Below, in pieces: positions 1,783-2,211 of a stretch of 64,000 nucleotides of DNA. Positions within the stretch are counted from its first letter, which is position 1; each line of letters opens with the position of its first letter. The notes below the pieces were generated by a model. It saw only the letters and a list, made by a program, of their open reading frames with translations, was not told where the DNA came from and made no database searches. The position numbers and the translations under genes were made by a program. The stretch is from Escherichia phage vB_EcoM_phAPEC6. The stretch is taken from sequence record MK817115.1; one strand, written 5' to 3'.

Positions 1783-2211
1783 TTAACTGCCTTTCATTTC
1801 CTCGGCAGCAGTACGTGCAAGTTGGTCAGCAAGGTTATTATAAACATTATCTGCATGAGCTTTAACCCATTCAAATTTACAACCTGAACTGATTTCATCC
1901 AGAATTTTCCATAAAGAATCATTCTTTACATTATTCCAGTTACGTTTTTTCCAACCAGCTATCCATTCATTAATTCCACGAACTACATAGTTGGAATCAG
2001 TGTAAACAAATATTTCAGGGTTTTCATATGTATCCTTAACATATTGAATACCAGCAATAGTTGCTTGTAACTCCATTTTGTTATTTGTAGTCATTATATC
2101 ACCAAATGACAGTTTGTCCTGGATTTGATTATCAATAACTACAACAATACCAACACCGCCTGGGCCTGGATTTCCTAGACAAGAACCATCAGTATATAAG
2201 TCTATTTTCAT
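1783..2211 (-). CDS. RNase HI (RnhA-type ribonuclease H)
   Basis: [20 protein letters not shown]-terminus and [19 protein letters not shown]-terminus typical of type 1 RNase H; start placed at the ATG forming an ATGA overlap with the frd stop (the ORF track starts 18 nt upstream). Confidence 0.7.

Follow-up and report, generated by a model that had tools for sequence, protein, structure and literature searches.

An RNase HI gene alongside a FEN-type RNase H gene in the replication cluster of the Asteriusvirus jumbo phage vB_EcoM_phAPEC6

We analyzed a stretch of 64,000 nucleotides (the window) from Escherichia phage vB_EcoM_phAPEC6 and conclude that its gene rnhA very probably encodes a catalytically competent, metal-dependent RNase HI that would clear RNA:DNA hybrids as an accessory component of a jumbo-phage replication cluster. 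Judged by its sequence and by the modeled structure of its product, rnhA is a genuine, intact, conserved, and ordinary RNase HI gene. Its occurrence in this phage is already known: some 30 genomes of related phages carry it in their annotation, it has been remarked on in print, and it matters little beyond correct annotation. Mildly new are the apparent swap of the gene in phage RaK2, which marks it as accessory, and the shortened handle of the enzyme.

The RNase HI gene and the FEN-type RNase H gene

The rnhA open reading frame (ORF) runs on the minus strand from an ATG at 2211-2209 to a TAA at 1785-1783 (Table 1). Its product was matched by the Pfam RNase_H family with a score of 126.9 bits (E = 8.8e-37; gathering score, 25.8) over positions 5 to 140 of the 141 in the profile, and by PHROG 531, "RNase H" (2.6e-50). 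Among solved structures, the best matches were E. coli RNase HI and its mutants (PDB, E = 2e-32), and identity with the E. coli enzyme is 45% over the whole length. The identification of the gene from its sequence is far beyond chance, in agreement with the first-pass annotation, which had proposed a classical RnhA-type RNase HI and had quoted the motifs KAHADNVYN and DQLA, both present in the ORF. The protein scored 147.7 bits against the NCBIfam equivalog model NF001236 (ribonuclease HI), below its cutoff of 160 bits; this shortfall is small and concerns a naming threshold, leaving membership in the superfamily and family unaffected.

Table 1. Location of the RNase H genes and of the neighbors of rnhA in the window
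Feature	Coordinates	Strand	Basis and remarks
rnhA, type 1 RNase H (RNase HI)	1783..2211 (stop codon included)	minus	142 aa; Pfam PF00075
ATGA stop/start overlap of frd and rnhA	2208..2211	minus	read directly from the sequence
frd, dihydrofolate reductase	2208..2729	minus	PF00186 9.8e-30, PHROG 316 3.7e-44; directly upstream of rnhA
Small hydrophobic ORF	2717..3085	minus	ORF list; 13-nt overlap with frd
dda-like SF1 helicase	412..1755	minus	447 aa; PHROG 325 8e-123; downstream of rnhA
FEN-family 5'-3' exonuclease, T4 rnh homologue, the other RNase H of the phage	32379..33365	minus	PF02739, PHROG 107

The active site is predicted to be complete. D8, E47, D72, H119, and D129 align with D10, E48, D70, H124, and D134 of the E. 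coli enzyme, and in alignments with E. coli RnhA and up to 59 relatives no variation was seen at D8, E47, D72, and H119 and very little at D129. The D-E-D-D carboxylates and the catalytic histidine are therefore intact, with none of the carboxylates missing. Some metagenomic RNase HI relatives have an Asn at the position of D134.

An AlphaFold2 model of the protein, computed with 60 sequences, had a mean pLDDT of 96.2 and a pTM of 0.91. It displays the five-stranded mixed beta-sheet and flanking helices of the RNase H fold, and in a Foldseek search its top matches were all E. coli RNase HI (TM 0.89, rmsd 1.4 Å, E = 4e-18). Neither Pfam nor the model indicated extra domains in the protein.

The second RNase H gene of the window belongs to a different family. 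Its product was matched by PF02739, the N-terminal resolvase-like 5'-3' exonuclease domain, with 60.3 bits (cutoff, 34.3; 2.5e-16) and by PHROG 107 with 1.1e-41. It is 27% identical to T4 rnh (E = 2e-11 by tblastn and 4e-14 by BLASTP), and the alignment of the two shows that the acidic motifs EADD, S(S/T)DxDF, and KGDxxDNV are retained. Identity with the rnh product of RaK2 reaches 81.7% over 328 residues. The coexistence of a FEN-type rnh with an RNase HI gene, as had been claimed, is thus confirmed by the domain, PHROG, and T4 matches.

We also searched the whole T4 genome in six frames, using as queries the RNase HI protein of the window and a profile of 60 RNase HI sequences. No RNase HI homologue was found in it, the best E values being 1.0 with the protein and 0.92 with the profile, compared with 1e-65 for the window as a positive control. 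The earlier statement that T4 carries only the FEN-family RNase H is consequently correct. As a yardstick, T4 is only distantly apt and in fact the wrong one, the window being that of an Asteriusvirus jumbo phage.

Gene neighborhood, distribution, and the RaK2 exception

Over its first 6 kb, the window shows 99.5% identity with Escherichia phages IA-38, vB_EcoM_E9.1, and JP4, and 97 to 99% identity with slurp01, G17, Sharanji, PBECO4, and 121Q. These relatives have genomes of ~350 kb and form part of the genus Asteriusvirus, within the Rak2-like jumbo phages. The annotation of E9.1 across the window describes a replication, recombination, and nucleotide metabolism module mixed with head and baseplate genes. 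The module comprises a gp43-like polymerase, a primase, a DnaB-like helicase, gp32, UvsX, UvsY, UvsW, gp46/47, NrdAB, and MazG, and the genes that we spot-checked with Pfam and, against T4, with BLASTP agreed with this annotation. Given this T4-like set of replication and recombination genes, rnhA sits in a replication module. The annotated primase (17010-18065) had no Pfam match at E <= 1e-3, and its similarity to T4 gp61 is weak, the TOPRIM regions being 25% identical over 125 residues (E = 3e-4); primer length therefore cannot be inferred from T4.

Other features of the module were recorded in passing. They include a DnaQ/RNase_T-type 3'-5' exonuclease at 24470-25288 (PF00929, 7e-15), a PD-(D/E)XK nuclease at 10972-11691 (PF12705), and a 212-aa ORF (19496-20134) annotated as "DNA polymerase" that has no Pfam match. 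Searches of the window for Rfam families and tRNAs found none.

The neighborhood of rnhA was as described in the first-pass annotation, both the tight coupling to frd and the position just upstream of dda being confirmed by the coordinates and by the profile matches of the two neighbors (Table 1). The TGA stop codon of frd (2210-2208) shares three bases with the start of rnhA, and the identical 4-nt overlap is annotated in 121Q, A4, EJP2, ph0011, and BF17. This arrangement suggests that translation of rnhA is coupled to that of frd. On the other side, a gap of 27 nt that contains GAGGG separates rnhA from the helicase gene, whose product is 30% identical to T4 Dda (E = 8e-26 by BLASTP). The small hydrophobic ORF upstream of frd is probably the first gene of this codirectional cluster. 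It had no Pfam match, and homologues are found at the same position in 121Q, A4, EJP2, CBB, and Munch; that of CBB is labeled a membrane protein, and the others are labeled hypothetical. Farther upstream, a 43-aa ORF on the minus strand (3079-3210) figures in the annotation of E9.1 and is missing from that of 121Q. It is probably an overcall, which leaves a divergent intergenic region of ~150 bp (3086-3233); if it were real, the divergent gene sets would be only 23 bp apart.

Scans for transcription signals gave little. In the region from 1 to 3600, we found 19 sigma-70 promoter-like sites, compared with 21.5 expected from shuffled controls, and 0 intrinsic terminators, again with no excess over shuffles. 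The T4-late-like motif TATAAATA was not enriched in the window (8 occurrences versus 10.4 expected). As the promoter, terminator, and late-motif scans were uninformative, transcription units could not be defined, and the operon structure that we propose around rnhA is derived solely from gene overlaps.

RNase HI homologues were detected in 519 of 50,697 phage records at E <= 1e-5, in many unrelated groups. At E <= 1e-15, 76 phage records matched, and the best 60 of these 76 were all Rak2-like genomes. We read the neighborhood directly in 121Q, A4, EJP2, ph0011, BF17, Turkey5, XaC1, Munch, and CBB. In all nine, the order is the small membrane ORF (not annotated in XaC1), frd, rnhA, and dda, followed, wherever the flank extends (Asteriusvirus, the Mimasvirus CBB, Munch, and XaC1), by a structural gene, a small (hypothetical) ORF, and IF3. 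Both frd and dda are listed beside the RNase HI match in Serratia phage BF and the Erwinia pEa_SNUABM phages, and a helicase alone is listed beside it in GAP32 and the Yersinia fHe-Yen9 phages. The frd-rnhA-dda order is thus kept in at least six Rak2-like lineages, and rnhA itself is found in most Rak2-like lineages, RaK2 being the exception.

Some database records call for care. Phages of Vibrio and Aeromonas, ~240 kb in size, that gave RNase HI matches might be taken for T4-like Straboviridae, an assignment that we rejected, as they belong to Aphroditevirus and Chaoshanvirus. NCBI protein entries named "ribonuclease HI [Escherichia coli]" lie on contigs of 335 to 351 kb, which are jumbo-phage genomes deposited as E. 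coli. In Salmonella phage SD-6_S16 a 44-bp gap lies inside rnhA, and in Salmonella phage SD-2_S15 there are two such gaps, of 137 bp and 23 bp; the annotated ORF is truncated in both. We set these gaps aside as evidence of dispensability, since both records are 25 to 40 kb short and have several gaps per 6 kb; an assembly artifact is more probable than natural deletion.

The gene is under purifying selection, with a dN/dS of about 0.1. Values calculated by the Nei-Gojobori method on Asteriusvirus pairs with unsaturated dS (0.6 to 1.0) were between 0.08 and 0.14; for instance, dS and dN were 0.89 and 0.107 between the window and BF17, and 0.63 and 0.052 between ph0011 and BF17. Its GC content (34.5%) and GC3 (22.4%) equal those of the neighboring genes and of the whole window (GC, 34.3%). 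The best cellular relatives of the protein are 47 to 50% identical to it and no closer than E. coli RnhA (45%). In addition, a comparison of the window with complete RefSeq E. coli genomes gave no match. We reject recent capture from the host on the grounds of the limited identity with RnhA, the phage-like composition, and the lack of a match in complete E. coli genomes. Altogether, the conserved gene order, the selection, the composition, and the distance to cellular relatives indicate that rnhA is an old, vertically inherited gene maintained by selection.

RaK2 (Alcyoneusvirus) departs from this pattern. In this phage, the slot between frd and dda is occupied by ORF149 (NC_019526, 135505-136089), which codes for a 194-aa protein of the Mom family (PF25680, 4e-37) with no RNase H similarity (BLASTP E = 19). 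Searched in the same way as T4, the whole RaK2 genome (345,809 bp) yielded no RNase HI, with best E values of 0.74 to 0.83. The remainder of the RaK2 module is collinear with the window, and by DNA similarity no outgroup is closer to Asteriusvirus than the RaK2-type Klebsiella phages. The most economical reading of these sequences is that the frd-dda slot ancestrally contained rnhA, which was exchanged for another gene in the RaK2 lineage. As RaK2 has an 82%-identical FEN enzyme and no RNase HI, the FEN enzyme appears to be core and RNase HI accessory, and the loss of RNase HI in RaK2 indicates that the replication machinery can work without it. The proposal of the first-pass annotation, that the hybrid nuclease might reflect a different primer-removal or R-loop strategy, is accordingly weakened as far as a core strategy is concerned.

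Two further differences were noted in the otherwise collinear RaK2 module, which contains several copies of RB49ORF239c-like endonucleases and several homing endonucleases. At 2670 bp, the large terminase gene of RaK2 is ~1 kb longer than that of the window (1641 bp; 29549-31189), and an intein or an inserted endonuclease could account for the surplus.

Proposed role and its alternatives

From its family, the product of rnhA would cut the RNA strand of RNA:DNA hybrids in a metal-dependent manner. It would be expressed from a replication and nucleotide metabolism cluster, codirectionally with frd and dda, and its translation would probably be coupled to that of frd. The phage would thereby gain a hybrid-removing activity of its own at the stage when its ~350-kb genome is transcribed and replicated simultaneously in a burst. 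Type 1 RNases H require a run of several ribonucleotides and are unable to cut at the RNA-DNA junction, and for that reason RNase HI would complement the 5' nuclease rather than replace it. RNase HI would break down R-loops and most of each longer RNA primer, and the FEN enzyme would then remove the last ribonucleotides at the junction. The gene would be kept by selection in most Rak2-like lineages and yet be replaceable, presumably because host RnhA can substitute for its product. We favor general removal of R-loops and long hybrids, giving independence from host RnhA, over a more specific task, since RaK2 matures its Okazaki fragments without RNase HI.

The main job of the enzyme might alternatively be removal of Okazaki primers, with RNase HI digesting the lagging-strand primers and the FEN enzyme finishing the work, as E. 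coli RNase HI does with the 5'-exonuclease of Pol I. The coexistence of rnhA with the FEN gene and its location in a replication gene cluster fit this scenario, as does the established biochemical complementarity of type 1 RNases H and 5' nucleases. Nevertheless, we regard it as unlikely. With its collinear module and 82%-identical FEN enzyme, RaK2 does without RNase HI, which is thus not required in the clade, and in T4 the T4-type FEN enzyme removes primers alone, according to the annotation of T4 rnh. T4 primers are about 5 nt long, and RNase HI needs about 4 or more contiguous ribonucleotides. Short T4-like primers, if this is what the TOPRIM primase makes, would therefore be poor substrates, although this point is weak given that the primase is 25% identical to gp61.

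A role at replication origins appears more doubtful still. RNase HI could trim a transcript paired with the DNA at an origin to provide the 3'-OH for leading-strand synthesis, acting with the adjacent Dda and by analogy with RNA II of ColE1. In T4, synthesis is primed by origin R-loops, which the viral RNase H is believed to process and UvsW unwinds, and dda mutants are defective in early synthesis (PMC3016281). The window encodes a UvsW homologue, and in each lineage with flanks that were read, dda comes directly after rnhA; a helicase is listed beside the match in further lineages. However, the adjacency of rnhA and dda is the only link to origins, and the presence of an unrelated Mom-family gene in the RaK2 slot argues against an obligate pairing of the two genes. 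The other neighbor, frd, has no role in replication initiation, so that the neighborhood resembles a mixed early-gene cluster.

A broader proposal that we can offer as no better than a long shot is that rnhA and dda form a module. RNase HI would process or clear R-loops, Dda would remove proteins and act as loader of the replicative helicase, and together they might set origin firing or resolve conflicts between transcription and replication on a phage genome of 350 kb. The short handle of the enzyme would be tuned to this task, and RaK2-type phages would have lost rnhA and come to depend on host RnhA.

It is very improbable that the gene serves in counter-defense or host takeover, by destroying hybrid RNA and so disabling RNA-guided DNA targeting or reverse transcriptase-based defenses. 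Such a function could be evoked by the accessory status of rnhA, by its slot being exchangeable with a Mom-family gene, and by the scattering of RNase HI genes over many unrelated phage groups. Mom of phage Mu has a DNA modification, anti-restriction function. Against it, the phage enzyme is an ordinary, housekeeping-type RNase HI devoid of an extra domain, and its gene, which has been passed on vertically across genera, is surrounded by replication genes and does not belong to a variable island of accessory genes.

Finally, that rnhA is a decaying or functionless passenger, as its absence from RaK2 and the internal gaps in the SD-6_S16 and SD-2_S15 records might suggest, is barely credible in view of its dN/dS, its fully intact catalytic residues, a position kept over divergence down to 51 to 59% protein identity, and record gaps that point to assembly artifacts.

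Comparison with known RNases H

Database records of 121Q (gp43), PBECO4, slurp01, Sharanji, G17, UB, SP27, and many other phages already name the gene, as RNase H, ribonuclease HI, or rnhA. Its product is 100% identical to 121Q gp43 (YP_009101637) and 97% identical to the RNase HI of PBECO4, and identity with the enzymes of other Rak2-like genera, such as CBB_314 (FDG95_gp314) and those of GAP32 and Serratia phage BF, is 51 to 59%. In 121Q, PBECO4, slurp01, CBB, GAP32, and Serratia phage BF, we thus deal with the same gene, found at the frd-rnhA-dda position where flanks were read or listed. For phage CBB, a pair of ribonuclease H enzymes was reported, of which one is a relative of T4 rnh, and dda is given as CBB_315 (PMC5259590); in the CBB locus, CBB_315 adjoins the RNase HI gene CBB_314. 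Our literature searches returned no characterization of the RNase HI of a jumbo phage or of its close relatives and nothing specific on characterized phage-encoded RNases HI or on the interplay of RNase HI with FEN enzymes, and rnhA is not discussed in the Sharanji genome paper.

T4 RNase H (rnh) has its name in common with the rnhA product, as well as a part in clearing RNA from replication intermediates, but its fold and mechanism are unrelated. Its true homologue in this phage is the FEN-type enzyme.

The closest characterized counterpart is E. coli RNase HI (RnhA; PDB 2RN2, 1RNH, and others), which has the same fold and an identical DEDD and His active site. Compared with it, the phage protein is 13 residues shorter and has a shorter C-terminal tail, and the E. 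coli sequence HAGHPENE is replaced by HADNVYNN. At 34.5%, the GC content of the phage gene is well under that of E. coli genes. The other difference lies in the basic protrusion, or handle, which helps the E. coli enzyme to grip its substrate. This element is present in the phage protein, where it comprises the 15 residues between W87 and W101 (residues 87-101), whereas it has 20 residues in E. coli RNase HI and most cellular relatives; a 5-residue deletion has removed the TADKK stretch of the E. coli enzyme. The 15-residue handle is common to the Asteriusvirus clade and many metagenomic relatives, and the RNases HI of Mimasvirus and Eneladusvirus have the full-length, 20-residue version. With its shorter handle, the phage enzyme may differ from E. 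coli RNase HI in affinity or in substrate preference.
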